Below are positions 1 through 25,567 of a stretch of DNA of 26,605 nucleotides, piece by piece. The stretch is from IMG/VR virus record IMGVR_UViG_3300037465_000671, positions 1 to 26,605 of that record; one strand, given 5' to 3'. Source of the stretch: a virus. Lineage: Duplodnaviria; Caudoviricetes. A program made the position numbers and the translations under genes. Positions within the stretch are counted from its first letter, which is position 1. Every line of letters starts with the position of its first letter. The notes below the pieces were generated by a model that was given only the letters and a program-made list of their open reading frames with translations, was not told the DNA's origin and ran no database searches.

Positions 1-37
1 TTTTAAGGAGAGCGAACTAGAGCCTATAGGAGGAATG

Positions 38-74
38 GTTACAACTACTAAGAATCCCTATTAGGGATTGAAAC
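38..74 (+). CRISPR. Single 37-nt CRISPR direct repeat of cyanobacterial type (resembles repeats of type I-D arrays); positions 1-37 may be a spacer
   Basis: GTTACAACTACTAAGAATCCCTATTAGGGATTGAAAC has a GTT start, an AATCCCT-ATT-AGGGATT hairpin (53-69) and the canonical ATTGAAAC end. Only one copy is visible and it is at the window edge, so an array cannot be confirmed. Confidence 0.72.
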
Positions 75-2101
75 TAGTTTGGCTTGCTTGCAAAGTAAAT
101 GGAGTATGCCAAGTCTACCGATACGATCCGCATCAAAAGGCTAGCGCCAGATTAATAAAGATAGGTAACGATCTAGATGGTGTACCTCAAAAGCTATTTA
201 TTTGGCAAGATGGACTTTATTTAATTACCGATACAAACCTTTATCGATTAATTGGTACTACAATTACCAATATTCCGCTGCCGAGTAACTTTAGACCCTT
301 GGACGCTATAGAATTTAGCCATCAAAAACGCTTATTCATTGGTGGCTATATTGCCAATACAGCCGCACTGTTAGAGTCAAGCGATGGATCGCACTTCAAT
401 CAAGTCCCTGGCGTTCCTCAGTCCTTTACGGCTTGCGCGATCGCTTCTTTATTGGAAATCAGAGGCGACCTCATTTTACTGGCGAGAGATATTGGCAGCA
501 ATCAATCTGGGATTAAACTGCATAAGTTGCCTAACGGCATCACGGCAAATATTACTACTAGTAGCTATATTGAAATCGGTTATTTGCCTTCAATATTTTT
601 GTATTCAATAAGTCGAATTGATTTTGCTTTTTTATTGGGACATTATTATTTTGCCGTTGGTGACGATCTTTGGTTATTTGACGGGCAAAATACAGCATTT
701 CATTCGCTAGAATCTTTAGGAATGCCAAATGCAGAGATTTCTTGCTTAAAAGCTTTTGGCGATGCTTTATTAATTAATTTTGCTGTCGTGCCAAATACTT
801 ATTTGTTTAGTTACTTGCCGCAATCAAACGATACAGTAATGCAAGTCAATAAATGTTTGACTTTATTGTATCCTACAGGGTTTATTTCCGAGCGTCCTTT
901 CACTGGCGGACAATGCCCAGGCGTGCTTTATAGAGTGTATTTAAAGCCCTTATACTGGAATGGAGATTTTGTTTATCCAGGGACTGAAGGAGAAGGAGAA
1001 GAGATATATGTAGATGTATACGGCCCGGTAGCTAGAATTTATTGCTTGCAAACAGCGGCTGAATTGCCATGCAATCCAGGCGATACTTATTATTTTGCTT
1101 TTTTGGTAGCAGATGCTACCCCTGGTCCAAATGCAACTAATATTTTTTTAAGCGGAGGAGGATGTACTCCTACGGGGCAAGATTATTTTGGTTTTTTGCC
1201 TGGCTCGATACGAATAGTAAGATTTGATGGCTTGCCAGACAATTGCGACTCTACTGACGAAAAAAGATTTTTAACCGATAGCGATCGCCCCATCTTTACT
1301 AGTAATGAAAAATTTCACGTTCGATACGGACTGGAAGTATCTAATCTTTCTTATTCATCTGACTTAGCGATCGATAATGGTGAGGCTAGCTTAAACCTTG
1401 CTAATTTTATTGACGACAGCTTGCTAAGCGAAGATATTATTAGATACGCCAATCGAGCATCTTCGGCTACGCAAAACTTAAATGCTAATGCTATTAGGTT
1501 TATTTTAGCTGTAGTCGATCGCGTTAGCTACAACACCACTCATAACTGGCATCCCAATCAAGTTTTGATGACGGGCGAGATTGGAGAAATCAAAATCGAC
1601 CATGCCAGAGCAACATTAGAGTTAGCCTCGCTTAAGTCGAAACTACAAAACAATAACGCACTAAAAACTACCAGTTATTGCAGGCACGTCTTAGGCGATA
1701 ATAACTGTCAAGTTAATTTAGAGCCATTATCGACAACAGGGCAAGTAACAATTTTGTACGATCGCCCACAATTTTTTGAGGCTCAATTAGCCATTAATAT
1801 TCCCAGCACAGATTATTATTTAAGAGGGCGATTGCAATGGTTGAGCGGCGAAAATAGAGGAGTAGTATCAGAAGTAGCTTTTCAAGATAATTACAGCAGC
1901 GATACCATGACCCTGGGGTTATGGGAAACTACGCCTTATCCAATAGCCGTAGGAGATAGTTTTAAAATAAGTCCAGGATGCGATCGCTCGATAGAAACCT
2001 GCCATAATAAATTTAATAACGTGCCTCTATTTGGCGGATTTCCTTGGATTCCAGGAAGCGATCGCTATTTAGCAGGAAGCAATTTATCTGCTCCAGGATG
2101 A
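68..2101 (+). CDS. Tail hub/baseplate protein: DUF2163 plus BR0599-like C-terminus (GTA gp13 / lambda gpL-like), with a ~380-aa N-terminal extension; true start uncertain
   Basis: C-terminal ~295 aa carry IxRxDG...FLTDSD...DLAIDN...TGEIGEI, CRHVLGDNNC and GCDRSIETCHNKFNNVPLFGGFPWIPG, the four-Cys pattern of this family. The called TTG start lies inside the CRISPR repeat. Confidence 0.85.
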   Translation: MKLVWLACKVNGVCQVYRYDPHQKASARLIKIGNDLDGVPQKLFIWQDGLYLITDTNLYRLIGTTITNIPLPSNFRPLDAIEFSHQKRLFIGGYIANTAALLESSDGSHFNQVPGVPQSFTACAIASLLEIRGDLILLARDIGSNQSGIKLHKLPNGITANITTSSYIEIGYLPSIFLYSISRIDFAFLLGHYYFAVGDDLWLFDGQNTAFHSLESLGMPNAEISCLKAFGDALLINFAVVPNTYLFSYLPQSNDTVMQVNKCLTLLYPTGFISERPFTGGQCPGVLYRVYLKPLYWNGDFVYPGTEGEGEEIYVDVYGPVARIYCLQTAAELPCNPGDTYYFAFLVADATPGPNATNIFLSGGGCTPTGQDYFGFLPGSIRIVRFDGLPDNCDSTDEKRFLTDSDRPIFTSNEKFHVRYGLEVSNLSYSSDLAIDNGEASLNLANFIDDSLLSEDIIRYANRASSATQNLNANAIRFILAVVDRVSYNTTHNWHPNQVLMTGEIGEIKIDHARATLELASLKSKLQNNNALKTTSYCRHVLGDNNCQVNLEPLSTTGQVTILYDRPQFFEAQLAINIPSTDYYLRGRLQWLSGENRGVVSEVAFQDNYSSDTMTLGLWETTPYPIAVGDSFKISPGCDRSIETCHNKFNNVPLFGGFPWIPGSDRYLAGSNLSAPG

Positions 2102-2151
2102 CTTTTTGACTTTTTGTTTATGGCTTTTTGACTTTTTGTTTATGGCTTTTT
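2102..2151. repeat. 22-bp tandem duplication CTTTTTGACTTTTTGTTTATGG x2.3
   Basis: Read directly. It begins right after the TGA stop of the hub gene. Confidence 0.9.
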
Positions 2152-2196
2152 CTTTTCTTTATAACTTTTTGTTTTTATTTTTTATTTGACTGTCCC

Positions 2197-3108
2197 ATGC
2201 CATCACCAATTTACGGACTGCCGGAACTAGCACAAAATCAAGCTAATGCTTATTTGACTGTCAACTACTTGAATCAAGCGATCGAGGTATTGACCGGAGC
2301 CAAAGTTATTTCTAGAGCCGTAACCAGTCCTCCTAGCGGCTCGGCAGACGGCGATCTTTATATCGTGCCTGTAGGTGCCAGTGGAGCATGGACGGGGGAA
2401 GAAAACAAACTAGCCATCAAATTAAATGCCACTTGGTATTTTTTTGCACCTAGTTCGAGAATTGGCATTAAATATTTAGAATCAGAATCAAAATTGGTAC
2501 ATTGGAACGGTACGGCTTGGGTGGAGCTAGGGTTAAGTACTGATGTTGAATTTATTCAAGATACGGTAGCCGCCATGCTTGCTGGAGGAACCCATACGGG
2601 GATAAGCTTTAATTACGATGACCCCACGGGGACGATAAGCGCCACTGTTTCTGGCGGTAGTGGTGGCGGTAGTGGTGGCGGTGGGGCAGGAGGGGAACTG
2701 GCTTCTAATTTAGTTTTGCTAAAAGATTCCAATTGGCGCTTAGAATTTGCAGGCAGCGGACCGAGGACTGGCAATTCCTGGAATTCTTTTGCTTCCGGTG
2801 AATCAGGGCAGGGGAAAATTAGATTGGGATATTACGTCTTAGGGCAAACATTGCATTTAATGTTAGCTGGAGGTGGTTCGACCAACGGCAACCTAAAGCT
2901 AATAAAAATAATTGAGAAAGATACTAATATCGTTTTAATAAGTACTACTTTAGCTACCGTGCTAGGAGTTGATGTTGACGCGCTGACTTACTGTACTATT
3001 AGCACCTCATCTGACGCCGGAAAAACTGCTTGCATAGAGGTGGAAGATGCCGACTCTGGAAGCGGTTGGGCTTGGATTTCTATCGGCCAAAATATTTTTG
3101 TACAGTAA
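2197..3108 (+). CDS. DUF2793-family tail fibre / receptor-binding protein with Gly-rich linker and a putative carbohydrate-binding C-terminal domain
   Basis: LPELAQNQANAYLTVN...PPSGSADGDLYIVPVGASGAWTGEENKLA...WYFFAP matches DUF2793. Start moved to ATG 2197 because the 23 codons from 2128 are a translation of the T-rich repeat. Confidence 0.8.
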   Translation: MPSPIYGLPELAQNQANAYLTVNYLNQAIEVLTGAKVISRAVTSPPSGSADGDLYIVPVGASGAWTGEENKLAIKLNATWYFFAPSSRIGIKYLESESKLVHWNGTAWVELGLSTDVEFIQDTVAAMLAGGTHTGISFNYDDPTGTISATVSGGSGGGSGGGGAGGELASNLVLLKDSNWRLEFAGSGPRTGNSWNSFASGESGQGKIRLGYYVLGQTLHLMLAGGGSTNGNLKLIKIIEKDTNIVLISTTLATVLGVDVDALTYCTISTSSDAGKTACIEVEDADSGSGWAWISIGQNIFVQ

Positions 3109-3129: not shown

Positions 3130-5439
3130 TTAATAAAGTGATATTATTTGCTCGTATCCATTAATTACAATTGGATCGAGTTGAGTTATTTTGACAAAGC
3201 CCGATCGCACCGCACCACCGCTTGCCAATACTTGTCCCGATAAGTTCCAAGCATAAAAATCAGCATTAATCCCCGTAACTTCATCGCTAAATAGCAAAGC
3301 GTTGGCAGAACTAAAAAACTCAAGTTTAAATCGATACTCTGCTAATAAATCACTAACTGGTACGTTTGTACTTTCTAGTAAAGTATTAAAGTATCGATAG
3401 TGACACCACTGCCAGCTAACAACGATCGCGTCATCATCGTTTCTTCCTATCTTTAAAGACCCAACAGGAGGGCATTTAAGATCTTCGGCGGTAAAAGTAA
3501 CGGTAGTCACTGGAGAGGTACTTAAATTACCTCCAGGCTCAAGAGCTTTAAACCTAAAATTAGAACCGATTAGGTCGAATCTACTATCGGGCCTGATATA
3601 AAAAGCATCTTCTCCTTTTAATAGATAAAAGCGTTCGGAAATAGCGTGAGCGTTAATATAGGACTGCGTACCGTACAAACCACGAATTAACACCGATAAG
3701 TCGTAAGTTTTTGGAGCGACTAATGCGGCATTCTTAAAAGCAATAATTTCAGTTCCCACGATCGCCAAATTTACTTCGTCATAAAAATCCAGTTCGGGTA
3801 TAGGCGAAAGTTCCCCATCGCCATCTAATCTGACTCTAATAGTGCTAGCGCGATCGACTAACCCACTACTGGCATTCCCACTAGGTATTTGCAATACTTC
3901 CCCAATTACGGCAGGCGCATCGTAAGTATTGACTAAATAATAATTATTACCATTGTCATTACTGGCATAAAGATCGAATACAGCTAAGTCGAATAGAGTA
4001 TGAGGAAAGATATTCAAACTCGCTCTAGCATCTGTCGCTTTTACTACTCTAGCGTTAAGTGCCAATAGCTCGATCGTTCCATAAAAAGGTGGATTGTTTT
4101 CCGGTCTGATCGGTAATAGACTAGGCACGCTGGCTAAGTATTCCGAGTCTTCGACAAAGTTGCAAGTAGCAATATAGTTATTGCCTAGATCTATTTTCTC
4201 GATCGTCAAGCTTTTGGAACTAATCGATCTATAGTTAAGGCTCCAGTACGTCCCCAAGCGAATCAGATCGAAGACGACAGCAGATCCTATATTGGCTTCT
4301 ACTTTCTTCCTTCTCGCCCAATATAGAGCCAATAGAGACTCGCTTATAGACTTGATGGTGTCTCCTGGCAAGGAATAAGTAAGGCTAATAGACTCGCTAT
4401 TGGAATTAAGGAACCCAACTCTAGCAGAGCTAGCTGATTCGTTATCGTGGTCTTTATGTATGCTTGGCGCAGATACTTGCAATCTACTGGGTAATTCGTT
4501 TAAGTCTTTATTGCTAAGGCTAAATACTTTTTCTAGTTCGTTGCCGTAAGGTCTAGCACCAGCTACGCGATCGCTTAACACCGCTGGGCTATTAATATTC
4601 TCTTGAATATGATATAAATCTAAGCTTGAAACAGTAAAGTCAGTAATATCTACGTCTCTAGGCTTAGTTTCCCTTGCCGCTATCAAATATAGTTGCTGTG
4701 CCTGCTCTAAATAAGCTCGATATTGCTCTCCATCTTGAGAAGCGATAAACCCTTTCTGGCGAGTAGTATTGCTATCGGCAAAGCTATCGTTATCTAAGTC
4801 GTTAGGGATAGTGTAATTTTCTATCCCCGATCGCTCGATTAAATCCGCCAAGTGCGAGGGTATATCTTGCCCCACTAATTCGGCACTTACAGGGGGGAAA
4901 GAATTATTGTATTTATCTAGGGGCAAGCCATTAAATACTATCCGGCACAAACCATAGTAAGCAGGCGTAAGACTAGCCCCATCTCTTCCTACTTCTGTCG
5001 GATCTTGAAACGCACCCCCGCCGCGATCGCCGTCGTAAAAAGTAAAGTATTGAGCGGTTTTACTGTTGCGCTCCAAAGTCTTCTCGTCAGTCTTAGTAGT
5101 ATCGTAGGCGATCTCCCCATAGAGCCATAATCTGCGTAAGTTACACTTGCCCTCAGCCAGCAGCACGTCAAACGTACCGTAGTAAGTGTAAGCAGTATAC
5201 TTCGGCCCGCCTTTCCCCTCTCGCTTTCTTTTCTTGACTTCAATAATATCTTTTGCCCAAATCAAATTGCCTGTAACCCTGCCTATGCCGTAGATCTTGG
5301 GTATAGCTTTCCCGTACTCGCTGCTAGGTGCTTTCAGGCTATCTAGCCGATTGGTAGTTCCTTTCTGAGGTTTTTTAAAAAAGCCCAACAAAAAACGAGC
5401 AGCAAAGCCTACGGCTAAAGATATGCCAAAATCAGCCAT
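3130..5439 (-). CDS. Central tail / host-specificity protein, GTA gp15 (Rcc01698, megatron)-like, lacking the TIM-barrel glycoside hydrolase insert
   Basis: SEYGKAIPKIYGIGRVTGNLIWA...GKGGP...YTYY, PAYYGLCRIVFNGLPLDKYNNSFP and EIIAFKNAALVAPKTYDLSVLIRGLYGT motifs; lies downstream of NlpC/P60. Confidence 0.85.
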   Translation of the reverse strand: MADFGISLAVGFAARFLLGFFKKPQKGTTNRLDSLKAPSSEYGKAIPKIYGIGRVTGNLIWAKDIIEVKKRKREGKGGPKYTAYTYYGTFDVLLAEGKCNLRRLWLYGEIAYDTTKTDEKTLERNSKTAQYFTFYDGDRGGGAFQDPTEVGRDGASLTPAYYGLCRIVFNGLPLDKYNNSFPPVSAELVGQDIPSHLADLIERSGIENYTIPNDLDNDSFADSNTTRQKGFIASQDGEQYRAYLEQAQQLYLIAARETKPRDVDITDFTVSSLDLYHIQENINSPAVLSDRVAGARPYGNELEKVFSLSNKDLNELPSRLQVSAPSIHKDHDNESASSARVGFLNSNSESISLTYSLPGDTIKSISESLLALYWARRKKVEANIGSAVVFDLIRLGTYWSLNYRSISSKSLTIEKIDLGNNYIATCNFVEDSEYLASVPSLLPIRPENNPPFYGTIELLALNARVVKATDARASLNIFPHTLFDLAVFDLYASNDNGNNYYLVNTYDAPAVIGEVLQIPSGNASSGLVDRASTIRVRLDGDGELSPIPELDFYDEVNLAIVGTEIIAFKNAALVAPKTYDLSVLIRGLYGTQSYINAHAISERFYLLKGEDAFYIRPDSRFDLIGSNFRFKALEPGGNLSTSPVTTVTFTAEDLKCPPVGSLKIGRNDDDAIVVSWQWCHYRYFNTLLESTNVPVSDLLAEYRFKLEFFSSANALLFSDEVTGINADFYAWNLSGQVLASGGAVRSGFVKITQLDPIVINGYEQIISLY

Positions 5440-5586
5440 TAGAATAAATTGGGTAGACTTACCAATCGGTATGATACCATGCTATAGTCTTAAATGGGAT
5501 AATATTGCCTTTTTTCGCCGGCAGCGCGGGCATATACAGAACGGATATATACAGAAATAGAACAAGCTATCGAAAAACCATTCTAG

Positions 5587-5614
5587 AAAAAGAAGCCAGG
5601 GGAGCCCTGGCTTC
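5587..5614 (-). terminator. Putative intrinsic terminator, copy 1
   Basis: Perfect 10-bp stem GAAGCCAGGG/CCCTGGCTTC with a 3-nt loop, followed by TTTTT on the minus strand. Confidence 0.65.
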
Positions 5615-5630
5615 GTCACGCATACAGAAA

Positions 5631-5686
5631 TAGAACAAGCTATCTAGAACAAGCTATCTAGAACAAGCTATCTAGAACAAGCTATC
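5631..5686. repeat. 14-bp tandem repeat TAGAACAAGCTATC x4
   Basis: Read directly. The neighbouring duplicated unit has only one copy. Confidence 0.95.
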
Positions 5687-5701
5687 GAAAAACCATTCTA
5701 G

Positions 5702-5729
5702 AAAAAGAAGCCAGGGGAGCCCTGGCTTC
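5702..5729 (-). terminator. Putative intrinsic terminator, copy 2
   Basis: Same hairpin and T-tract as copy 1. Confidence 0.65.
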
Positions 5730-5860
5730 GTCAATTGGCGTGAAGGAATTATTTCTTTCCACTCCTATTGTGCCAGTTGGCTTCTAAGTAGTAGTTAGAT
5801 CCATATATGCGCCTCGCGTCGCGTCGCAAAAGCGTATATTATCCCAATATAAATATAGCA

Positions 5861-6409
5861 TCAACTTTGTAGATTGAAATAAGCGATCGCCCGACGCTCC
5901 CAATATCCCTTAAAAGGCACTTCGCATACTTTGCGATCGACTTGAGAGGCATGGATAAACCAAGTGTCTTTACCGTTTACTTTTACCTCATTGCCATAGG
6001 TGACAGCGGCGACAGTTTCCTTAGAAGTCTTGCTGGGTAAAGTTTTTGTCCTGTCGCCTATATAGGCGACAGGATAGGTGACAGTAGGTGACAGGTCTTG
6101 AATTTGGCTTACTAATCCGACGTGATGAGGTACGCCATTAAAACGAAAAACGATAATATCCCCTAGTTCTAGCTCTTCTTGCTGTTTGGGGGCAAAATAC
6201 GTGCCGATCGCGTTCAGCAGGGAATCGCCATTAGGCGTTCGCTGGTAGTTGTCTTTTAGGGCGATCTCCATGCCCAATTCCTCGGCTACCGCTAGAAGAA
6301 ACTGAACGCAATCAACGCCAATACCCTTGGTGCGTTGATGGTGCTGCCAAGGGGTATCGATCCAGGTGCGGGCAATGGCGATAGTTTGAGATCTGATTTC
6401 TGTTTGCAC
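5861..6409 (-). CDS. Phage tail NlpC/P60 cysteine peptidase (GTA gp14 / lambda gpK-like) with a ~40-aa repeat-derived in-frame insertion
   Basis: ARTWIDTPWQH...GVDCVQFL...GDIIVFRF...HHVGLV...FIHA motifs. The segment between HVGLV and FIHA is abnormally long. Confidence 0.9.
   Translation of the reverse strand: MQTEIRSQTIAIARTWIDTPWQHHQRTKGIGVDCVQFLLAVAEELGMEIALKDNYQRTPNGDSLLNAIGTYFAPKQQEELELGDIIVFRFNGVPHHVGLVSQIQDLSPTVTYPVAYIGDRTKTLPSKTSKETVAAVTYGNEVKVNGKDTWFIHASQVDRKVCEVPFKGYWERRAIAYFNLQS
5989..6094 (+). repeat. ~100-bp TAGGTGACAG-rich element inside the NlpC/P60 gene, homologous to 26491-26598
   Basis: CATTGCCA-TAGGTGACAGC..CGACAGTTT..TTA.AA..CTT[core]AA.G.TTT...CTGTC.CCTAT.TAGG.GACA is collinear with the right-end copy. 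Confidence 0.85.
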
Positions 6410-6438
6410 GATCGATCCGTTTTTTTAAAATTATTTAC

Positions 6439-6605
6439 AAGAAAGAACGGGAGCGTAAAAGCCCACCAGCGAAGCGTCCTTCAGGAGTGGGATGAAAAAT
6501 GCCGCTAAGAATATTCAAATGGTTGGGACATCGACCGTTAAGTTATTGCCGTTCGAGCTTAGAATCCCACGGCTTTAACGCAGTGTAGCCGTGGGAGTAT
6601 GTCAA
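6439..6605 (+). mobile_element. Non-autonomous miniature IS200/IS605 (TnpB-type) element: left end, last tnpB codons and right end
   Basis: Preceded by TTAC (6435-6438). Left hairpin CCCAC..TCCT-TC-AGGAGTGGG; NAAKNIQMVGTST (from 6498) resembles the TnpB C-terminus; right hairpin TCCCACGGCT/AGCCGTGGGA; ends in TCAA. The left boundary is approximate. Confidence 0.8.
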
Positions 6606-6653
6606 CCCTCTCCTAACTCCTAAGCAGAAAAGGGGTAAGATCGAGGCTAAAAC

Positions 6654-7004
6654 CTAAAACGGGCAATATTCTTCATACTCAAAGCAAGCGGGATTGCTTT
6701 CATCCATCGGAATATCGAGCTTCGTGCAACGCCCTTGGCGATCGCTAAAGTGTACGCACATGGTACAGATAGGTTTAATCTTGGTATTTGCTGGATTGCT
6801 AGCCCAAAACTCTAACCCTTCAATGTACCCAAGGATATAAGCGTCGTCGCTTTTATGATACCGAATATCAGGCATGGCATTTACGCTGCCATCGGTATAG
6901 CCGTCTAGCCAGCGATCGCGCGCTGCTTTATCTTGCTCGGTGATTTCCTCGTTGGGAAAGAATGTATAGGTGCTTTCTGAAGAAAGAACGAATTGACGTG
7001 CCAT
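6654..7004 (-). CDS. Hypothetical phage protein with a C-terminal CxxC...C...C metal-binding motif
   Basis: CTMCVHF...GRC...AC motif. ATG 7004 is preferred over 7019 because GGAGA lies upstream of it. Confidence 0.65.
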   Translation of the reverse strand: MARQFVLSSESTYTFFPNEEITEQDKAARDRWLDGYTDGSVNAMPDIRYHKSDDAYILGYIEGLEFWASNPANTKIKPICTMCVHFSDRQGRCTKLDIPMDESNPACFEYEEYCPF

Positions 7005-7214
7005 AATATAGATCTCCATTCCATTAATTTGGGTTGTAAGGGCGATCGCTTATCTCTTCGCGGGGAAAGCGATCGCTGTAAATTTGCAGTTTTCTTGACT
7101 CGGAAAGATCGACCATTAATCCCGAATAAGCGTTGTAGTCGGTACTGGCGTGCTCGTTCGGTCTTTCGATCTCAAATTCAATCTCGACTTTTAACCGTTC
7201 TAAATTGCAGTTAC

Positions 7215-7376
7215 AGAAACCTTTTGATTTCTGCACGAGTATCCTTGGCAAGTGCCTCAAGGTAACTGCAGTAGTCTTCCAGTTCCCACAAGAAACCTTT
7301 TGATTTCTGCACGAGTATCCTTGGCAAGTGCCTCAAGGTAACTGCAGTAGTCTTCCAGTTCCCACAAGAAACCTTT
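7215..7376. repeat. Perfect 76-bp tandem duplication bounded by the 10-bp microhomology AGAAACCTTT
   Basis: Units start at 7215 and 7291; a third AGAAACCTTT is at 7367. Confidence 0.95.
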
Positions 7377-7532
7377 AGCCTCGTCTTCATCTTCGTCTTC
7401 GCTCGTTAAATATCGGGCAACTTCTTCGAGCGAGTCGGCGTAATCCTGCATTTTTTGGGCTTCTTCTCTTAAAAGAGCTTGGAGTTCTTCAAGTTGCTTG
7501 AGTTTTTTGGCTGCTTTTGTTTCGGTTCTCAT
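7257..7532 (-). CDS. Hypothetical acidic helical protein, divergent from the HTH gene
   Basis: ATG start with GAGAG upstream and coiled-coil-like composition. The last 10 aa arise from the 76-bp duplication. Confidence 0.6.
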   Translation of the reverse strand: MRTETKAAKKLKQLEELQALLREEAQKMQDYADSLEEVARYLTSEDEDEDEAKGFLWELEDYCSYLEALAKDTRAEIKRFLVGTGRLLQLP

Positions 7533-7753
7533 GATTTTCTCTCGTTCGTTGTTTGATTTTACTCTTTACTTTACTTTGGGCTTGGCGCGAATGCCTTGCG
7601 CTTTTCTCTTGTTTCTATATTACTAACTAAATGATACTATTGCCAATGTGCTAGCAATACTATTTACTTATAAATAGTCAGGCTAAACATTATTAGTGCT
7701 AATTAGCTAGCAATACTAGCCATGTGATAGTATTGAGAGGTAAAAATTGGAAA
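7533..7753. promoter_or_regulatory. AT-rich divergent promoter region with repeated candidate operators
   Basis: GCTAGCAATACTA occurs at 7650-7662 and 7706-7718, with related TACTATTGC and TAGTATTG half-sites, between two divergent genes. Confidence 0.55.
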
Positions 7754-7975
7754 ATGCCAGTGAAAAACAAAATCAAACCGTTTTTAGACAGTAGAAAGAT
7801 TACGGCTTACAGATTCAGGCAAGATGTAGGAATAGCGCAACGAACGGCTTACGATCTGTACAACAATCCAGATCGACTACCTTCATCTACTGTTTTGAGC
7901 AAAATCTGCGACGCTTACGAGGTTCAACCCAACGATTTATTAGAGTGGGACAAAAAAGAAAAAGCCAATAGTTAA
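7754..7975 (+). CDS. Xre/Cro-C1 family helix-turn-helix regulator
   Basis: ITAYRFRQDVGIAQRTAYDLYNN...PSSTVLSKICDAYEVQPNDLLEW is a typical single-domain Cro/C1 HTH. ATG 7754 is preferred as the start. Confidence 0.88.
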   Translation: MPVKNKIKPFLDSRKITAYRFRQDVGIAQRTAYDLYNNPDRLPSSTVLSKICDAYEVQPNDLLEWDKKEKANS

Positions 7976-8087
7976 GCCATTTTAGTTTTAGAACGCCTTC
8001 AGCATTACTGCTTTCCCCCGCTTGGGTGGCTTGGAATTTATTGCCGTTAATTTCCAAGGATATCGTGCTAGTGCTAATCGGTAACGT

Positions 8088-11000
8088 TCACTCAAACTTA
8101 TTTCGCGCCGATTCTAAGCGAGAGCTGTAGTCTCTCAAAGTCTGACTTTGACTCTTTCTAAAGCTATCGGCATCAGGTGAATAGACTTTGAACTGGTTTT
8201 GAATGGTGATATTGCGATCGCCTTCTCCTTTTCCTCTTCTACTCACAGGTGCGATCGTGCTGGCATAATTAACGTTTCCGACCGTGCCACCATTGGCGTA
8301 GCGATCGACCTGGGTATTAGCTTTCATCTTTACCCAGTCTCCATTTGCTTTGAGAGCGCGATAAAATTGAGCGTCGCCATTCTTGTCGGTGAGGATTTCT
8401 TCGTTTGCACGAGCAACAACTGGAATTGCACCTACTCCTTCTAAAGCCATTGCCCGCTTAATTCCCAGTCCTAAACTCAAAGCATCTGTAGCAACCGAGT
8501 TCATACTAATCCCAACCGTGCCACCATCATCGAAATTGCCAACAGCAGCGCCAGCCAACGCCGACAAGCCCGAACTAAGCGCGCCTCCTCCACCTCCACC
8601 TCCACCGCCGCCGAACATCGGAGTAGAGCCGCCACCAATACCCAAAAAGTCGCCAAATAACCACTGCACGATCTTCATGGAAGCCATCTTCGCCGCCATA
8701 TCCGCAAACATTTGGAGGACTCCCTTCGCGAGATTCCCCAAGCTGCCCAACAAGCCCGCCTCGAATCTGAAGAAGGAACTTAACGCCCCCTCCAAATTTC
8801 GCCCTACACCATCGCGAATCTCCAAAGCCAAACTGTTGAATCGATCTTTGATGTTGGAGAGTTCTTGGGCATCTATTTGGTCGAGTAAATTGCTGATTTG
8901 TTGCAGTCGATCGGGATCGAGGATACCCGCTGCTTTAGCTTTGTCAAAAGTCTCGATTCGTCGTATTTGTTGGTTGAAAGGGAGCATCTGCAAATCAAAT
9001 TCAGCTTGCCGAGCCGCTTTATAGTACGGGCTAATCCATTCCCCCAACCCTTGGGATCGAGCGTCAAATAGTTGTTTGCTCAGATCGCCGAAGATCGTCA
9101 TTTGGTCTAGTTGCTTTTGCAGTCTCGTGCGGGTGCTTTCGGTAAATCGCGCGAGATCCTTTATCCCCTCTAATTTGTCGATCGAGGTTTGCAGGATGGT
9201 GCTTACCTTTTTCATCATTTGTTGATAGGAGATAGCGCCCGCGCTGTAGGCTTTGACTGTAGCCTCGATCTCGCTCCTCTCTTCCGGCTTGATTTCGAGG
9301 GTGTCAAAGGCGGCAAATAGTTTTTGAGGGTCGATCGCCCCTTCGGATTTTTTAAGCGTCTCCATTAAATCCGCCATCGAGTCGATTCGATCTTGGATTT
9401 CTCGGACTGCAACCTGGCCCGCCAAAGCCGCCTGTTCGTCGATGGTCTGTCCGCCGCCGTATTTAAGCAGGATTTCTGCTACTTTCCTCTGCGCCTCCTC
9501 TCCTTGTTTGAGCAAATCCCGACGACGTTTGGCTAAATCGAGTATTTGCGCGTTGGCTTCAGCAATGCGAGACGTAAGTATGGAATCGCGCTTAATCGTC
9601 TCGTTCTGCGCCGCAACCGCACGATACTGCCTTACGGTTTGGGCGAATCCCGCTATTTGGCTGTCGAGCTTTTGCTGGTTAGCCCGTTGCAAGAAGGAGG
9701 TGACAGGCTTGTAGGGCTTGTAGTCGGCTTCTGGTGGGGGGTATCTGTTATCCGCGATGTTTCCAGGCAGACCGCTCGACCCCGCTGCCGCGCCTGACTG
9801 TTGAGGGTACGTCGCATAATAATTACGGTTATCCGAAGTCGCGTTTCCCCCCCCTACCCACGTATAGAGGCGATCGCTAGCAGTTTTCATTTGCCCGTAC
9901 GCCCCACGCAGTTCGTTATTCAGCCGCTGTAGTTCCCCCTGCAATTGTTGTCCCTTGGGCGATAGGTGGTTTTGTCCTTGCTGATAGCGGGCTAAATTTC
10001 TCATCTCGTAGCCGTACTTATTCGCCCACTCTTGACCGTCATACACGACTTCATTCTTGAGTTGCTGCTGGACGCTGACTATTTGTTGCTGGATTGTTTT
10101 GTACTGGGCTTTAAAAAAGTCAAACTGCGATTTAGCAGCAGGGTTGATGGCAAATCCCCCACCGCTGACGGCATTGCTGCTGACGGCATTGCTGCTGACG
10201 GCATTGCTGCTGACGGCATTAACATTGGCGTTGTTGCCGATCGCGCTAGCAATTCCACCGCCCAACTTGCTAGGATCTAGTCCTTGTAAATGCGCTGCTG
10301 CATTGGTTAGCTGCTGTCCGGCGTTTGCCAGGACATTACCAGAATCGATCAGGTTGCTGCTACCGCTCTGCAATTCGGATGCCGCTTGCTTCAGCACTGA
10401 CTCAGTAAGGTTAAGCGTCGAAAGCTTTTGCTGAAGCTCTGCCATCTTCTCGTTAAGCTGCTGCTGTTTTTCAACGAAGCCCTGCATCTTTTCTCGATAC
10501 GCTTCCGCTGCGTCGATCTCTTTTTGGTATAGTTCCGACCGTCGCTCTTGCAATTCCTCAAGTTTTTGCTGTAGCTCCTCACCCTTGGCTTTAGTGCCGC
10601 GTCCTACAGTATCCAATTCATCCAGCAGCCCGCTAAACCATTCAGCCAGCTTGACGGCTGGCGAGTCTACCCCTGCGCCACTTTTTAGAAGTTGGGTTTT
10701 GAGAGGCAGGATTGCGTTCTCTCGTGCCAGTTTTTGAATCTCCAATTGGAGATCTCTAGTTTGCTTTTTAATGTCGTCGATCGCCTTAGAGTATTCCTTG
10801 CCAAGATCTCTGAGCGATTTTTGGTAATCGCGGTTAGCCTTACTAATCTCGCGTCCCAGATCGCCCATTTCCTTCTGCGTGCTGGCGATATCCTTGAGTA
10901 CGGTTTTGCGCTCTGAGGCAATATCTATCAACTGCTTGAAGATATCGCTACCTTGGTCGATTAAATCCAACTGACTGGTACTAATGTCCTTAAGTTGTTG

Positions 11001-14000
11001 CAAGCGCTGCTTGACATTATCCGAGCGAGCCTTGGACGTAGCATCAACATCTAGAATTGCTTTCTCGATTTGGTATCTCGAAGCTTTTAACGGATCGCCG
11101 CCTAATAATTGCCTTAGATCGGCAAGTTCTTCTTTATGCAGTCCCATGGCGATTGCTTTGCGCCTCATTTCGATAATTTGCCGGCGCAATTCTATTTCTT
11201 GCCGCAGGTTCTGGACGGTGAGGATTTTCTCGGCAGCTTCAAATTGCTCCTTGGTTTGCCCCTGCTGGTAAGCTTCACGATAGACGCTAGCTTTGTTAAG
11301 CTTGGCTGCTGCGGATAAATCGAACTCTTTAGAAGCGATCGCTGCCATCGCTTTGTTGAGGGCTGCGGTGGCCGCTGGCAAGCGTCTTTCCCCTAGTTCG
11401 CGCCAATAAGCCAAAGACTCTGTAGCTAGATCGCGCTGCTTAGACTTTAGATCGAGCAAAGTTGCTAAATAATCCTTGGTTGCGCCATGGGTGCGAATCA
11501 GTCCGGCGTTGACCCTATCGTTTGCCGATTGCACTTGCGAGAAAGATGCCGTCAGGGGGCTGCCGCCTAACGCTTTAAATACTTCTGTCATCTCATCAGG
11601 AAGTAATTTACTGGTGGCTTCTTTGATGGTTGAGGCTAACTCTTTCCCTAAATTCTCAATCCGAGCTTTTTGCTTGCTAAAGTCAATATCCGCTAGCTTA
11701 AACTCTGCAAAGCCTTTGGTAAATCCAGAATTGGCGATCGCTACCTGTTGTTTGAGATAAAATTCATCGATCGAGCGCGATAGATCGTCGTAGCTGTAAA
11801 CTAACTCCTTGAGTCGCACGGCATAGGCTGCGACTAATTCCCCGTTACTCCTAAATATGCCTTGAGCTTGAATTTCGGCATTATAGTAATCTGCTAATGC
11901 TTTCTGGCTTTCTCTGGACGCTTCTTTGAGCCTGATTAACCCGCTTGCAAATGCCTTTAAATTGCCCGACACTGGCAATTTCTTGTCCGTCTGCTCCAGT
12001 TTTACGGCTAACTCCTCAAGCTGCTTGTTGGTCAATTTAAAAGGGTCTAGATTGAAGCCGAATTCAGCTAGCTCTTTCTGCATGGCAGGTGCCGATTGCT
12101 TGAGTTGTCTGGCAATGGTACGAACCAGAGCATCTAGCACTCTGGCCGTACTTTTTAAATCTAGTCGCTGGTTAGCTTGTTGCATGGCATCAGCCATGGC
12201 AGGAGGTAACTGGTTGGTGAGGATGGACTTAGCGGTATCGAGCGATCGCTCGATTGACTTTTCATCTACTAAGTCAATCTTCAGTCCTTTAAAACGAGCT
12301 TCTTGGACGGCAAGGGCATCAGATAAACCGTGAAGGCTCCGCTTGTAGTCGTCTGCGGCTTTTTGCTGTTGCACCAAAGCTTCATTAAAACCTAAGCTAG
12401 CTTGCTCTGCTTCTGTAGTTAATTGGTTAAATTGCTCTAATCCAGTCAATAAAGCATCCTGCTCTGGAGTAAATTGAAATACCTCTTTAAGTTCTTTAAG
12501 TCGTTCGATGTCTCCCGCGCCTATAGCGTGTAAAGGCTTTTTAGCTAGGGTTTCTATAAATTTTTGGTCTGCTTCTTTTGTGCTTAGAATAGCATGTTTT
12601 ATCTTTTTTAATTGGTCGTCAACCGCTCTATAACGAGCCTCGGCATTTATCGCCCCAGCTTCGGCATTTGCCAATCCTTCTCGTTCTGGTAAAATCTCCC
12701 GATCGAGTATGCGTTTAGCGACATTGCCTTTTACCATAGCTTCACCTAATTCCAAAGAAGCTTTGATATTGGCAAATTCAAAACCAAGCTCCTTAAGAGC
12801 ATTGGTGGTATTTTGAGTGCCATTCTCTATGCTTTTCCAAAACCGATTGACAGTATCGAGAATGCCTCTAATATTGGCTATCTGCTTATCGATATTGCTA
12901 GCGGTGACGGGATCTAGAGCGCCTTTTTCGTCTAAAACTTCTTTAGTTTTTTTAAGCGTTTCTATTTGCCTTTCGAGCCAGCTAATATCGCCACCAGGAA
13001 TGAGGTTGATTTTTATTTCTGCTTTCTCTGCTTCTAGTTGCTCTAGCTTTAGTTTTAAGTTGGAGCGTTCTTCAGGAGTGAGCCTGTTCTCTACTAAAGA
13101 CAGTTGAATTTCGCCTTGAGTAATTTCAATGGCTTTTAATTTTTCTCGGTATTTCTCTATAGCAGATGGATCTACTTCTAACTTGATAACTTTAGATCTG
13201 ACATTTCTCAGAACGGTAGCTAAGTCTTCAGCGTTTTTACGATATTTCTCTAACGCTTGCTGGCTAGACATTGATGCTACGGGATTAATATTTTCTTCGT
13301 ATTCTTCATGGGACATTTCTTTTAATCCCATTTTTTTGCGGCGTTCGTTAATCCCTTCTCTGCCACCAAATGGTGCATCTATTAATCTAGTAAGATCTGC
13401 TAAGCTATCGTAAAACCAACTGCCACTTTTAAATGGCTTTTCACGAGCGCCTAATTTTTCTACAGTTTTATCTAATTGTCCTAACTTGTCGATAACTTCC
13501 GGCGTCTTCTTAACAATAAGATTAAAACCAGCGCCGATGGCATCTACTAAAGCAAATATTCCAGCAAAAGCCGCGCCTTGTAAAGCAACAGCGGACACCC
13601 CACTCATTACCGCTTTAAGTAGTCCAATTTGCTTGGCCAGCAATCCAAACTGAGTACCCGTTTCGATCGCGTGCTTGATTAAATGCGCTAAGAAAGTAAC
13701 TAAATTTACCGCAGCTAAGACAGTAAAAGCTATAATTAAATTTCCTGCGTTAGCTGCTGCAAACTCCAACGCATTCCCTAAGGTATTAAATAAAGGAATT
13801 AGGATGCCCGCGCTCCCTGCCATAGCATCAAACATTCCTTTGCCTAAACTTCGCTCTAAACTAAATCCTAAATTCCTCCAAGCATTTTGGACTTTGGTTG
13901 CTCTGCCGATTTCCGAACTAGCAAATACTTGAGACTCTTTATCTAATTGCTGGATAAACCGAATAACTTCTTCGTAACCGATCGCGCCAGCCTTAACATT

Positions 14001-17000
14001 TCTTAATAACTCAGCAGGAGCTTGATTTAACGCTCTGGCAAATATTTGAATAGCTCCTGGCAAGCTTTCTGATAGCTGTTGCCTTAGCTCCTCGGCGGAC
14101 ACTTTACCTTTAGAAATCATTTGAGTAACGGCAGAGAGCGATCGCTCTTGCGCTTGTCCTGAAATCCCCATTAAAGTAAGCGATTCGCTCAAAGAAGCAA
14201 ATAAGTCGGCACGTCCTTCCAGTGGCGTTTGATAAGAAGCAGCCAATAATTGAGGAGTGCCTTGCAAGGTAGAGCGCAAGTCTATGGCTTTATCTTTGAG
14301 GCGATCGATAAATGTTTCAGCATTGCCACCTTTAAAAGCGTCCATTGACTGGGCAAAGAAAGCAACGTTTTTGGCCGTTTCTAAAGCTTGCCTGCCAAAC
14401 CTGACAAAAGCAGTTGTCACCAAAGTAATACCAGCAGCAGATAAACCCAAAAATACCAATCGTTCTCCAGTGATACCGATAGCTTTACCCATATCGATCG
14501 CGCTTTGAATAAAATCGGTATTAAACAATTGGTTTAACTGATGGCGCAATTGTTTTGCCATATCCATGGCAGTATTAAAGCGATTGGGGTCTAAATTTAT
14601 ATCGGTGGGTAAATTGCCAAATTCTTTTTTTATCTCTGCTACAAATCCATTTAATTTAGTCTTGACCTTACCTAAATTAGTTTTAATTTTACTTGCTATT
14701 GCATTTCCAGTAAAATATAAATCAATACTGCGTTCTAATTGACTCCCCCATACTTTTCCTACTGCGGCTAAAGCGGGATTATTAGATGCAGCTAAAGCTA
14801 TTTGCTGATTTGCTAACCGCAAAGCGATCGCGGCTTTTTGAGTTGAATCGCTATTTACCAAGCTGCTAACAATAGGATCGATATGTGCGGCTAGTGCTGT
14901 TGTTGCTTTTGATGGCTGCTTTCCTATTCTTAGATTGGCTAGCCTTGCTAGGGCTTTTTCCAAAGGAGCTATAGCATTGGTATTGCCTGCTTTTACCTTT
15001 TCCAGTAATCCTAGAGCCACCCTCAATTGGACCTCTTCGGTTTTCCAAAGAGCAGCCATATCAGCCTTAAGCGTGGCTAAGTAAGCTTTATCGTTTTGAC
15101 TTCTGACAGCAAATCCTGCTGTCGTGTTTTTAACCTGAGCTTCAATACTTTGTTGTTGCAATTGCAGTGAAAAGTCTTTTCGGGACGCAAAAGCTGGACT
15201 GATTATTCCAGCCTTAAGATCGGCGGCTAACTGCAATCTTTTAGTTTTAATAGCCTTCCATTGGACTTCAAGGGTAGCAAGGGTCGTTTTCAGATTTTCT
15301 TGGTCGCGCTTTAGTTGCTGTTGCGCGCCTTTATAAAATATTTTTAATCGGTCTAGTTCTTCAATGCTTGGCTGTCCTTTTGCCGCTGAATGGTGAAGTG
15401 ATTCCATGATTGCGTCGGCAACGCTTTTGCCTTTAACCGCTAGTCGCCCCAATCCATTGCCTAAGCCAATCTCTAAGCCTTGGACAATAAAATGAGCGAT
15501 CGCGATCGCTTTTTTTGAAGGAGACCGAACATCAGCGCCTTTTTTCAATCCTTCGATCGCCCCTTTGCCTAAAGCTTCGCCTGCATCCACTGCCGAAGAA
15601 ACGAATAACCCCATTTCTAAGCCTTTGGCAATAAAATCAGCTATTTTTGCGCTTTCTTTCTGATAGCTAGCTAATTGCTTTTTCAAGTCCTTGGAAGAGG
15701 CTTTGCCCGATAGTTTTTTTACCGCTTCATTAGCCGCCTTAGATTGAGCGTCCAAGTACTGGAACAACATCGATACGCCCAGATTAGCTTCACCTGGCTT
15801 GGTGTTGGCTATCATGGATTCGATTGTTTTAAAAAGCGAATTTCTGATTTTGCCAATTCGCTCTAATGCTGTGGAAATATCGGCTTCTGGCTGATTGCTA
15901 AAATCGTTTAGAACGGCGATCGCGTTTTCGATAATTTCCTTGGCTTCAGAAAACTTTTTAAGCTGTCCTTTGGCAGCTTTTAGCTGTACGGCAGCATTAG
16001 CCATACCCAAAGACTCTTCCCCCTTAGTTCTCTCTTCTTTAGGCTTGCTGCGAACGACTTTGGTTTTTTCGTCTAAGTTCTTGGCTGCAACCTCTACAAC
16101 GTGCTGTTGGTGGGCGATCGCTTGCTCGATCAATCCAGCATTTAAAAGATCGTCTCCCTTTTTACGCTGTTGCGAAATTTGTTGGTTGAGAGTTGGCTTA
16201 GACTTAGACTTAGCAGCCTCGATTTGTTGTTGCTTGGACAGGAGTTGATTGAGCTTTTTAAGCTCCTCCCCCTCAGCAGGCATGAGTTGGTTGGTAGCAC
16301 TGTAAGAATGCTCCGCAATTTTACCCAAAGCAGTTTCTATGGTTTTCTTGCCCGCACCTGCAATACCTAAATCGATACCGCCCGTTAAAACTGCTTTAGT
16401 CATACCTGAAACTGCCCGATCGATCGCGCTTGGGATAGAAGCAGCAAATTCGGACGCACCAGTTACGATGCCATGTACGCCTGGAATATTGCCAGCAAAG
16501 TGCCCCGCTTGTACTAATCCAGAACCTATAGCACGAGCGGCTGTTGTCTGGAATATCGGCAGGCTTCCTAAAGCCGAACCGATCCGCCCTGGAATTGAAA
16601 TTAGAGAGGCAGTAACGCCCTCGCCTACGGCAGAAGAAATTGGAGACACCAGCAGATCGGTCAAAGTATGGATTACTTGGCCCGCAGTTCCTCCTGTAGC
16701 GGCATTTACTCCCATCATTCCCGCCATGGGGAGCAAGAAATTAGCGCCCAAGTCTCGCGTCGCCTGACCGAAGGGCAGAGCATTTAGGACGGGTTTTTCT
16801 ACCGCTTTTAATTGCGTCCAGCCGCGATGCACGGTAACGATCGTACCGCTAATAAAATGGTTGAGGACGTACAAGAAATCTTCAGCCGATTTTTTGAGGT
16901 ATGCCCTCAACTTAATTTCTTGCTCCGTATAAGCTTTTCCTAATTGAGTAGACCTAAGATCGATCTTGCCAAACTCTGGAACTTGGTAATCAAAACCAAA

Positions 17001-22321: not shown

Positions 22322-22727
22322 TTAGATCCAACTCAAAATCTAAATCTAAATCTAAAGTAAGTTGAACGCATGCTTTTTTTCGTTCTTTTCGTTGGCTTGC
22401 GGCAAGGGAGCGCGTATCGGCAAAAAACTCGTCGCAATATTGCTCGTAAAGCCTAGCTAACTCTCTAGCGCTAAAAGGAGTATGCTTGGCAATTCTAGCT
22501 AGTTCCCAAGCTCTTTTGGCAGGCGACCTGACTTCCCTGTAGAGGCTAGAGAGTAAGTTCATGCAGGCTTCAAAGCTAAGATATTCTTCCCGTTGGCGGT
22601 TTTTTTTTCGGTCGATTGGAACTACCGCGCTAAAGCGCTTTTGCACGTCCTTAGCAGCAAGGGCAAAAATCCGATCGAGATTAGAGCGATCGAGATTAGA
22701 GCGATCGAACTGAGTTAATGCCAGCAT
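22311..22727 (-). CDS. Hypothetical protein
   Basis: 138-aa ORF collinear with the operon. The N-terminus contains a 15-bp tandem repeat (22672-22708). Confidence 0.55.
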   Translation of the reverse strand: MLALTQFDRSNLDRSNLDRIFALAAKDVQKRFSAVVPIDRKKNRQREEYLSFEACMNLLSSLYREVRSPAKRAWELARIAKHTPFSARELARLYEQYCDEFFADTRSLAASQRKERKKACVQLTLDLDLDFELDLNAG

Positions 22728-22839
22728 CTACCATCTACCATCTACCATCTACCATCTACCATCTACAGCCTACAGCCTACAGCCTACAGCCTACAGCCTA
22801 CAACCTACAGCCTACAACCTACAGCCTACAACCTACAAC
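22728..22839. repeat. STRR-like heptamer array: CTACCAT x5, then CTACAGC/CTACAAC x11
   Basis: 16 consecutive 7-mers fill the whole intergenic space. Confidence 0.95.
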
Positions 22840-24518: not shown

Positions 24519-24610
24519 GATCTAAAAAAATAACTTGCGGCTAAAAATAAGAAATAATCTCGCTTGGGTTTCGATCGAGCAAGACTTAAACGAAAACATC
24601 AGCAAAACGC

Positions 24611-24650
24611 AAAAAAACAAAAAAACAAAAAAACAAAAAAACAAAAAAAC
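24611..24650. repeat. 8-bp tandem repeat AAAAAAAC x5
   Basis: Abuts the stop codon of the 271-aa gene and forms a U-rich tract on the coding strand. Confidence 0.92.
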
Positions 24651-25513: not shown

Positions 25514-25567
25514 ACAGTATTAACTGTATTGACTGTATTGACTGCATTGACTGCATTGACTGTATTA
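25514..25567. repeat. 9-bp imperfect tandem repeat ACTG(T/C)ATT(G/A) x6
   Basis: Read directly, upstream of the tail tube gene. Confidence 0.85.

Follow-up and report, generated by a model that had tools for sequence, protein, structure and literature searches.

The question raised by this locus is why a complete CRISPR direct repeat should lie in direct contact with a phage tail hub gene, one spacer length from the end of a viral contig. The stretch of DNA analyzed here (hereafter the window) is the complete IMG/VR record IMGVR_UViG_3300037465_000671, a linear entry of 26,605 nt with a CheckV completeness of 23%; position 1 is therefore the contig end, and exactly 37 nt of the contig precede the repeat. 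Of the 14 open reading frames (ORFs) scanned, 9 have family matches, all of them either to phage functions (tail, tape measure, cell-wall hydrolase) or to domains of unknown function (DUFs), and no host genes were found anywhere in the 26.6 kb. The fragment, which includes a tape-measure gene of 4183 codons, has no close relative in any of the collections searched. A preliminary description of this DNA had offered three readings of the contact, namely that the phage carries an array or a lone repeat, that phage DNA has become joined to a host array, or that a spacer matching the tail gene gave rise to a chimeric assembly. The features on which the discussion of these readings turns are collected in Table 1.

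Table 1. Features of the window that bear on the contact between the repeat and the tail hub gene.
Feature	Position	Strand	Basis
S1, spacer-sized unique sequence, read as a host-array spacer	1..37	+	Directly 5' of the repeat; the contig opens at its first base
Complete 37-nt CRISPR direct repeat, cyanobacterial DR5 family	38..74	+	RF01318 score, hairpin, ATTGAAAC 3' end
Putative common stretch, host spacer = protospacer inside the hub gene	75..110	+	Inference; extent taken from spacer lengths of 34-37 nt
3' 2 kb of tail hub gene, 5' part (DUF2460/distal-tail domain) most likely missing	75..2101	+	Pfam, PHROGs, codon statistics, relatives
Protospacer in the tape-measure gene	13166..13199	-	33/34 match to a spacer of run X1, with the mismatch at position 21 of the spacer
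GTC, type I-D-type GTN PAM	13200..13202	-	Directly 5' of the protospacer

The repeat is a genuine CRISPR repeat of a host of the filamentous-cyanobacterium type. Its bases (GTTACAACTACTAAGAATCCCTATTAGGGATTGAAAC) occur as a single copy in the window, with none expected from shuffled sequences, and they align to the entire Rfam model RF01318 (CRISPR-DR5; model positions 1-37 of 37) with 51.1 bits, above the gathering score of 40, so that the 37-mer does match a known CRISPR repeat, a point on which the preliminary description had made its interpretation depend. The predicted hairpin comprises 7 bp (-7.9 kcal/mol, z -2.25; 4 of 200 shuffles were as stable) and leaves the 5-nt GAAAC tail unpaired; all of the sequence features previously attributed to this segment, including its completeness and the hairpin, were verified. 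With the DR5 repeats of Nostoc, Calothrix, Fischerella and others it shares the length of 37 nt, the GTT..CAA 5' part, the AATCCCTATTAGGGATT hairpin and the GAAAC end. Furthermore, its 3' 22-mer is found in arrays with a period of about 71-73 nt at no fewer than 121 genome loci, nearly all of them in filamentous cyanobacteria, which bears out the earlier assignment of the repeat to known cyanobacterial arrays. Published work associates the 37-nt DR5 repeats of filamentous cyanobacteria with type I-D and type III systems. The window repeat nevertheless differs from the DR5 repeats of sequenced genomes, the nearest full-length copies of which deviate at 3-4 of the 37 bases, and the exact 37-mer had no match in the viral, genome (species-representative) and metagenome contig collections. 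As it was found in no species-representative genome, the host species would lie outside the genome collection, or was not reached by the search.

On its 3' side the repeat is followed immediately by coding sequence. The called ORF (ORF1; 68-2101, 677 codons) is intact and shows no decay, and it begins at a TTG inside the repeat, two codons after an in-frame TAG (62-64). No other canonical start occurs before the TTG at 299 (codon 78), and the first in-frame ATG is found at 722 (codon 219), an arrangement that the preliminary description had reported correctly. The codon statistics assign coding potential to the hub frame from base 74-75, right up to the junction (log-odds of +3.7 for 74-184 versus -9.7 to -25.7 in the five other frames), and no promoter- or terminator-like site was found between the repeat and the frame. 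The encoded protein has the composition of a tail hub of the gene transfer agent (GTA) type (RcGTA g13-like), with PF09931 (Gp84_N; 53.1 bits, cut-off 26; aa 400-550) followed by PF09356 (BR0599; 87.6 bits, cut-off 22.9; aa 583-665), both domains thus lying within aa 400-665, and it also matches phrog_778 (E 5e-40). The window resembles GTA-type tail modules in its wider content as well, with NlpC/P60 and Rcc01698-like genes and a tape measure.

The relatives of this protein indicate what may be missing from it. An exhaustive phmmer search of 1.84 billion representatives returned 5377 hits, and in the 149 matches listed (the query excepted) the best-matched stretches lie at residue positions of at least 266, with no relative detectable for aa 1-265 among these matches. 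In the best match, P0002 (870 aa), residues 496-867 align with ORF1 266-674; since residue 496 stands opposite residue 266, P0002 has 230 extra residues upstream. Several longer relatives carry an N-terminal DUF2460 domain, at residues 9-207 in P0077, 4-211 in L133 (854 aa) and 30-212 in L134 (1067 aa). These are the three of nine long (774-1067 aa) hub relatives in which Pfam DUF2460 scores above the cut-off; the domain is weak in P0028 and was not found by Pfam in P0002, P0012, P0078, P0135 and P0140, although the N-terminus of P0002 is tied to the DUF2460 relatives via P0028 (E 2e-9, then 1e-4). Some cyanobacterial relatives of the GTA-type hub thus have the hub fused behind a DUF2460 distal-tail domain. 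In contrast, ORF1 has no such head, and DUF2460 is absent from all six frames of the window and from the 14 ORFs scanned.

A word-based protein search with the hub protein recovered the query itself only, and 7 of 401 genomes of the order Nostocales match ORF1, all in the hub domain only. In the ESM Atlas the best score for ORF1 aa 1-400 was 0.78, which is below the meaningful level. A search for related loci in viral contigs recovered no hub relative, and the Rcc01698-like protein led to one distant locus, L125, in which hub, NlpC and g15 genes follow one another in that order on one strand, whereas ORF1 of the window is situated beyond the Rcc01698-like gene and on the opposite strand.

With no start outside the repeat, coding sequence that extends to the junction, and the DUF2460 head of longer relatives missing, the hub gene looks as if it had been cut at its 5' end, although the case for truncation is an indirect one. 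The comparison of the N-terminus with homologues, as proposed in the preliminary description, therefore speaks against its wording, which placed the fusion at the gene's 5' end: the repeat would instead be joined to the inside of the gene. This position is also a difficulty for the reading that invokes site-specific integration of a temperate phage into a CRISPR repeat, the window representing one attachment junction. The junction interrupts a structural gene, whereas an attachment site would be expected between genes and next to an integrase, and no integrase family was detected in the 14 ORFs scanned. The repeat, moreover, has its full length, and no part of it is duplicated at the junction; integration of this kind is extremely improbable.

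The same anatomy bears on the reading that places a phage-borne mini-array or lone repeat ahead of a hub gene translated from TTG 68. In that case host Cas6 would cleave the leader of the tail mRNA, or RNA of the repeat would serve to decoy Cas proteins of the host. There is precedent for phage-borne repeats of this kind. Nostoc phage N-1 (KU234532) has 5 repeats and 4 spacers of the same DR5 family, phage YongM (MT426122) has 2 repeats and 1 spacer, and the Microcystis MaMV phages each contain 2 near-matches to the window repeat. The N-1 repeat is 86% identical to that of the window over 36 nt, and the YongM repeat has the exact 22-nt 3' half in common with it. Passages of the respective reports state that the N-1 array is transcribed (PMC4916379) and that the N-1 repeat is cut by Anabaena Cas6 enzymes (bioRxiv 10.1101/2020.04.14.041012). 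The window also contains 28 HIP1 sites (GCGATCGC), compared with 0.22 expected, a host-like density such as is seen in the N-1 and YongM loci, which suggests a phage of such hosts. HIP1 density was discarded as a means of telling phage from host DNA: values of 0.6-0.8 per kb were obtained both for the loci of N-1 and YongM and for the loci taken from genomes.

However, the local anatomy of the window departs from that of these phage arrays, which have 2-5 repeats, are preceded by a leader, occupy intergenic positions and are followed by non-coding DNA. In the window there is a single repeat, the contig ends 37 nt upstream of it (a second copy could lie beyond this end), and it abuts a coding sequence that begins at the first base after it with no terminator-like site, so that the intergenic position of the known mini-arrays is not reproduced. 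A sole start codon inside the repeat, with the TAG two codons earlier, and the absence from the entire window of the distal-tail domain expected at the head of the protein also argue against a mini-array. The earlier suggestion that phages can carry mini-arrays, with a Cas6 site in an mRNA leader, is therefore well founded as regards precedent, but receives no support from the surroundings of this repeat.

A further difference is apparent from the abundance of the repeat in run X1, a single public freshwater run in which depths are contig or word depths and comparisons between them are consequently rough. The exact repeat reaches a word depth of about 840 in X1 (3074 summed in the 41-80 bin) versus 8.35 for the phage contig, and contigs of X1 link exact repeat to exact repeat over 34 and 36 other letters at a depth of 6.5-6.7. 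Together, these observations point to large host arrays with many copies of the repeat; regularly spaced copies with unique spacers are seen for the exact repeat in X1, and one copy in the window. The abundance of the repeat does not track that of the phage, being roughly 100-fold greater by these contig depths, which implies that nearly all copies are located off the phage, unlike the situation with the Cas-less mini-arrays of N-1 and YongM. It would also be a less simple account for a phage to carry the repeat of the very arrays that target it (see below), and a phage-borne mini-array or solitary repeat is, on balance, very unlikely.

The junctions themselves are not represented in the portion of X1 inspected, neither the S1-repeat nor the repeat-75 junction being among the best 8 of 53 X1 matches. 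At 90% and 80% likeness, X1 has nothing on window positions 76-184, and a 1943-nt phage contig starts exactly at 185, without a loose end; this gap is no evidence for or against any reading. A third spacer starting at 185 (with GTA at 182-184) was considered and dropped, as no joint from 74 to 185 is reported in X1.

The sequence to the left of the repeat was confirmed to be 37 nt of spacer-sized, unique DNA, as previously described. The proposed search of this segment (S1) against phage and plasmid databases gave no match, nor was any found in viral contigs (0) or elsewhere in the window. In X1, window positions 1-38 are present at 338-375 of a 416-nt contig (depth 10.1), where they are followed by 41 letters unlike the repeat. 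The occurrence of this stretch in a contig without the repeat indicates that S1 is common to an array and to other DNA, as a protospacer copy would be. A sequence shared in this way produces a branch in the assembly graph at window base 1, which explains both the end of the contig and the length of 37 nt.

A direct connection between the host arrays and this phage is provided by a 34-letter spacer (depth 6.7), one of the two full spacers between exact repeats among the X1 matches listed. It has one match in the window, with a single mismatch, in the tape-measure gene (Table 1), and no match in 100 shuffles. The protospacer is preceded by GTC, which conforms to the PAM given for type I-D systems in passages of two reports (GTN/GTH; PMC5896167; PMC10212523), although this agreement concerns one protospacer and has a chance of 1 in 16. 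The other 4 of the 5 X1 array-derived strings have no match in the window at up to 3 mismatches, and the 1598 spacers of reference cyanobacterial arrays yielded none that is convincing (at best 16/16, and 19/20 in a tandem repeat). These sequence matches link the phage to a host whose arrays are of the DR5 type and whose PAM is type I-D-like, most likely a filamentous cyanobacterium of a freshwater community.

The exact repeat belongs to high-copy host arrays in X1, those arrays hold a spacer against the same phage, and the gene at the junction appears truncated at its 5' end. On these grounds the chimera is the reading favored among the three offered in the preliminary description, and the contact between direct repeat and hub gene is probably an assembly artefact that arose via a host spacer matching the phage. 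Under this reading, the phage sequence from 75 to about 110 would recur as a spacer in the host array; the assembler would pass from S1 and the repeat into this common stretch and then out along the phage, and the repeat would have no function in the phage. We infer that a spacer equal to 75-110 exists and that the two sequences were joined in silico and not in the DNA itself. The window has several characteristics of a metagenomic viral contig misassembled at one end through a spacer: array sequence is restricted to the outermost bases, the first base coincides with a spacer boundary, the same phage is a target of the host arrays, and the gene is cut at the junction. It differs in that the spacer equal to 75-110 was not observed: neither a contig with repeat, 75-110 and repeat nor one with phage and other sequence upstream of 75 was found, and window positions 76-107 have no exact match in metagenome contigs. 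Moreover, an assembler run at large k would not be expected to join sequences over 35 identical bases, which would count against an assembly origin if such a k was used. A literature search found no paper that describes spacer-mediated misassembly of viral contigs specifically, and the 'chimeric' passages of one report (PMC8862349) deal with other chimeras.

The same anatomy, a repeat and then phage sequence from inside a truncated gene, would be expected of a recombinant DNA molecule, in which homologous recombination between spacer and protospacer, or another rearrangement, joined the phage to a host array, or of a cut-down prophage fragment beside a chromosomal array. The spacer against this phage in host arrays with the exact repeat is equally compatible with such an event, and the per-spacer depth of the X1 arrays (6.5-6.7) is near that of the phage (8.35), as expected of one replicon. 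Varble et al. reportedly described recombination between phages and CRISPR loci in 2019. However, phage-array recombinants are expected to be rare in a population and not to form the consensus of an assembly, the intact frame of 677 codons argues against an old, dead fragment, and the absence of host genes from the 26.6 kb, in which every family match among the ORFs scanned is phage-type or a DUF, does not favor a chromosomal setting. A recombinant or rearranged junction is accordingly considered distinctly unlikely, and a real recombinant and a phage-borne mini-array, taken together, account for an appreciable minority of the probability.

If the join is an artefact, the first 74 bases are to be trimmed from the viral record, and the hub gene is to be annotated as 5'-partial instead of being given a TTG start within the repeat. 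The artefact would then also be informative, as together with the 33/34 spacer match in the tape-measure gene it ties an orphan phage fragment to its host, and on this chimera reading the type I-D-like system of the host would have taken spacers from this long-tailed phage. It is unlikely that the junction is real, the cyanophage having taken the end of a host array by spacer/protospacer recombination in the hub gene, or carrying a phage-borne repeat whose Cas6 site heads the tail-gene message. If it is, the locus would show a cyanophage capturing a CRISPR array in nature, which would be of clear interest, and phage-array hybrid molecules of this kind could carry CRISPR memory between filamentous cyanobacteria.

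The CRISPR repeat with which the window opens stands at the end of a contig, since the IMG/VR record, which is linear, is represented here in full (26,605 bases; CheckV completeness 23%) and position 1 is consequently its terminus. The 37-mer (GTTACAACTACTAAGAATCCCTATTAGGGATTGAAAC) occurs once in the window and in none of 100 shuffled sequences, folds into a 7-bp hairpin and matches the Rfam family CRISPR-DR5, the only Rfam family matched in the window, over the full length of the model (51.1 bits, where the gathering score is 40). This match disposes of the concern, raised in the preliminary description, that the repeat might resemble no known CRISPR repeat, and the details recorded there are all borne out: the repeat and its hairpin, the called TTG start of the tail hub gene (ORF1) within the repeat, the TAG at 62-64 in frame with it, and the late further in-frame starts (next canonical, TTG at 299; first ATG at 722).

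Principal features of the window
Feature	Position	Strand	Remarks
CRISPR repeat	38-74	+	37-mer
ORF1, tail hub gene	68-2101	+	677 codons
Protospacer	13166-13199	-	inside tape-measure ORF
Tape-measure ORF	8088-20639	-	4183 codons; PF20155 at aa 2084-2263

The exact 37-mer was found in none of the species-representative genomes or JGI metagenome contigs searched, and in no IMG/VR record besides that of the window. Its 3' 22 bases are present at a minimum of 121 loci (ca. 1000 stretches by estimate), nearly all of those listed belonging to Nostoc, Calothrix, Fischerella, Trichormus, Okeania and other filamentous cyanobacteria, in arrays with a period of about 71-73 nt, and the closest full-length repeats differ at 3-4 of the 37 positions. 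The 22-mer has a single exact match at 19 loci, nine of which (L005, L026, L031, L038, L060, L070, L100, L101 and L106, all genome contigs) carry solitary DR5 units, that is, no second repeat-like copy (at most 9 mismatches of 37) within 400 nt, although several of these loci are short or cut; in some, such as L038, L060 and L070, the likeness to the repeat is confined to the 3' half. The cyanobacterial HIP1 octamer is represented by 28 copies in the window (0.22 expected), a density which fits a phage of filamentous-cyanobacterium-type hosts; because similar densities occur at loci from N-1 and YongM, both lytic Nostoc phages, HIP1 does not discriminate between phage and host DNA.

The repeat is abundant in X1, a public freshwater metagenome run analyzed as Logan contigs, which contains 84% of the words sampled from window 1-1200. 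The word depth of its exact sequence is about 840 (sum for the 41-80 bin, 3074), compared with 8.35 for the phage contig. Contigs leading from repeat end to repeat start over 36 and 34 other letters (depth 6.5-6.7) are true arrays, and the depth ratio implies that repeat copies number in the region of one hundred; almost all of them, as the repeat depth shows, lie off the phage. This argues against a phage-borne array or solitary repeat, a reading which we regard as quite unlikely even though CRISPR-DR5 arrays do occur in phages: that of Nostoc phage N-1 comprises five repeats and four spacers, that of YongM two repeats and one spacer, and the Microcystis MaMV phages have two near-matches each. 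The N-1 array is transcribed (PMC4916379), and Anabaena Cas6 enzymes cleave its repeat (bioRxiv 10.1101/2020.04.14.041012). However, the N-1 and YongM arrays are intergenic and have a leader, and nothing alike is seen at the window repeat. Judged by eye, the DNA just upstream of the first repeat contains a stretch common to N-1 (L123 2290-2345) and YongM (L124 2625-2680), ..ACCTTGAAAACCAAATA.AACAA.., possibly a leader element conserved among phage-borne DR5 arrays.

One X1 spacer of 34 letters, located between two exact repeats, agrees with the protospacer in the tape-measure gene in all but one position (33 of 34; none in 100 shuffles), so the owner of the array has met the phage and acquired one spacer or more from it; the four other array-derived strings, of five tested, have no match in the window. 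The three bases directly 5' of the protospacer are GTC. The sole mismatch, at spacer position 21 (window 13179, minus strand; spacer G, phage A), may reflect an escape mutation or simply variation between strains. The spacer-sized sequence preceding the repeat (window 1-37) recurs in X1: window 1-38 lies within a 416-nt X1 contig (depth 10.1), where it is followed by 41 letters unlike the repeat, and this sequence therefore occurs outside arrays as well in this run, which is the look of a spacer with a co-occurring target. Its sharing with non-array DNA would explain why the window contig starts exactly one spacer length before the repeat; leftwards, the assembly graph would branch at the first shared base into the preceding repeat and the flank of the target. 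No X1 contig was placed over window 76-184 (the phage contig begins at 185), a hole which in itself proves nothing.

ORF1 itself appears to be cut at its 5' end. Matches to known families are limited to aa 400-665 (PF09931 and PF09356, of the GTA-type tail hub, and phrog_778), and tblastn against 50,697 phage records gave C-terminal matches only, all but one of the 15 records listed starting at aa 382 or beyond (the exception at aa 276). When 1.84 billion representatives were searched exhaustively with phmmer, 5377 matches were returned, and none of the 149 listed besides the query has its best-matched stretch before aa 266. Codon statistics over 74-184 favor the ORF1 frame (+3.7; the five remaining frames range from -9.7 to -25.7) and no promoter-like or terminator-like site was found between the repeat and this frame, so that coding extends from the first base after the repeat. 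In the best phmmer match (P0002, 870 aa, E 2.7e-38), residues 496-867 align with ORF1 266-674, an offset that gives P0002 230 extra upstream residues. Longer relatives carry at their head DUF2460, a GTA g12-type distal tail domain that siphovirus tails of this kind require (P0077, 9-207; an 854-aa protein at L133, 4-211; a 1067-aa protein at L134, 30-212; the last two from cyanobacterial genomes of the order sampled). The P0002 N-terminus is tied by similarity to these relatives through another hub relative, P0028 (in two steps, at E about 2e-9 and then 1e-4, within a small local database); the first 260 residues of ORF1 showed no link to P0002, P0028 or the DUF2460 relatives in that database, and DUF2460 is absent from all six frames of the window. 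The comparison with homologues proposed in the preliminary description thus finds a DUF2460 head in longer relatives and none in ORF1, but the argument for truncation is indirect, three of nine long hub relatives scanned scoring above the Pfam cut-off (one is weak and five, including P0002, have none). The simplest reading is that ORF1 lacks roughly 200 or more 5' codons, which would lie in phage DNA outside the contig.

The X1 array depth, the spacer match and the cut-looking ORF1 favor, among the options originally put forward, an assembly chimera: a real host repeat has probably been set on the end of the phage contig by way of a spacer that has its match in the hub gene. Within a de Bruijn graph, the array would be connected to the phage if just one further spacer matched 75 to about 110 perfectly, and the similar spacer and phage depths would offer the assembler no coverage cue to separate them. 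A real spacer-protospacer recombinant, or a prophage fragment adjoining an array, would be indistinguishable at contig level, and both phage-CRISPR recombination and prophage integration into CRISPR loci have reportedly been described; we nevertheless consider such an origin unlikely. Site-specific integration into the repeat is highly improbable, as a junction inside a structural gene does not fit. Fusion of a repeat to the beginning of a tail gene, the headline feature of the preliminary description, is unlikely to be a trait of the phage itself.

The tape-measure ORF is unusually long, its predicted product implying a very long tail, and contains tandem repeats (a 9-nt run at 20334-20495; 15-nt repeats at 10164-10220). 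The hub and DUF2793 fibre-like genes (68-3108, plus strand) are placed beyond the tape-measure, NlpC/P60 and Rcc01698-like genes (3130-20639, minus strand), on the opposite strand, whereas in the distant relative L125 hub, NlpC and g15 are consecutive on one strand. Between the tape-measure and NlpC/P60 genes there are only two small ORFs of no clear family, one matchless and the second with a weak match to phrog_4405, a function-unknown family (E 0.0087). A perfect 76-nt tandem duplication (7215-7366) falls inside ORF 7257-7532. Short tandem-repeat runs (22714-22837, 25514-25567, 24596-24651 and 5558-5733) comprise 7-mers (CTACCAT and CTACAGC), 8-mers (AAAAAACA) and 14-mers flanked on both sides by a 61-nt repeat, the run at 25514-25567 being of 7-mers by look only; we take these runs to be reminiscent of those known from heterocyst-forming cyanobacteria. 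An element of 75-105 nt, in three copies ca. 71-73% alike (5997-6072, 26192-26296 and 26494-26598) with internal TAGGTGACAG / CTGTCACCTA ends, looks like a small dispersed repeat, two copies forming an inverted pair at the contig 3' end.

The value of the contig terminus is that it connects a very long-tailed cyanophage fragment, otherwise an orphan, with a host.
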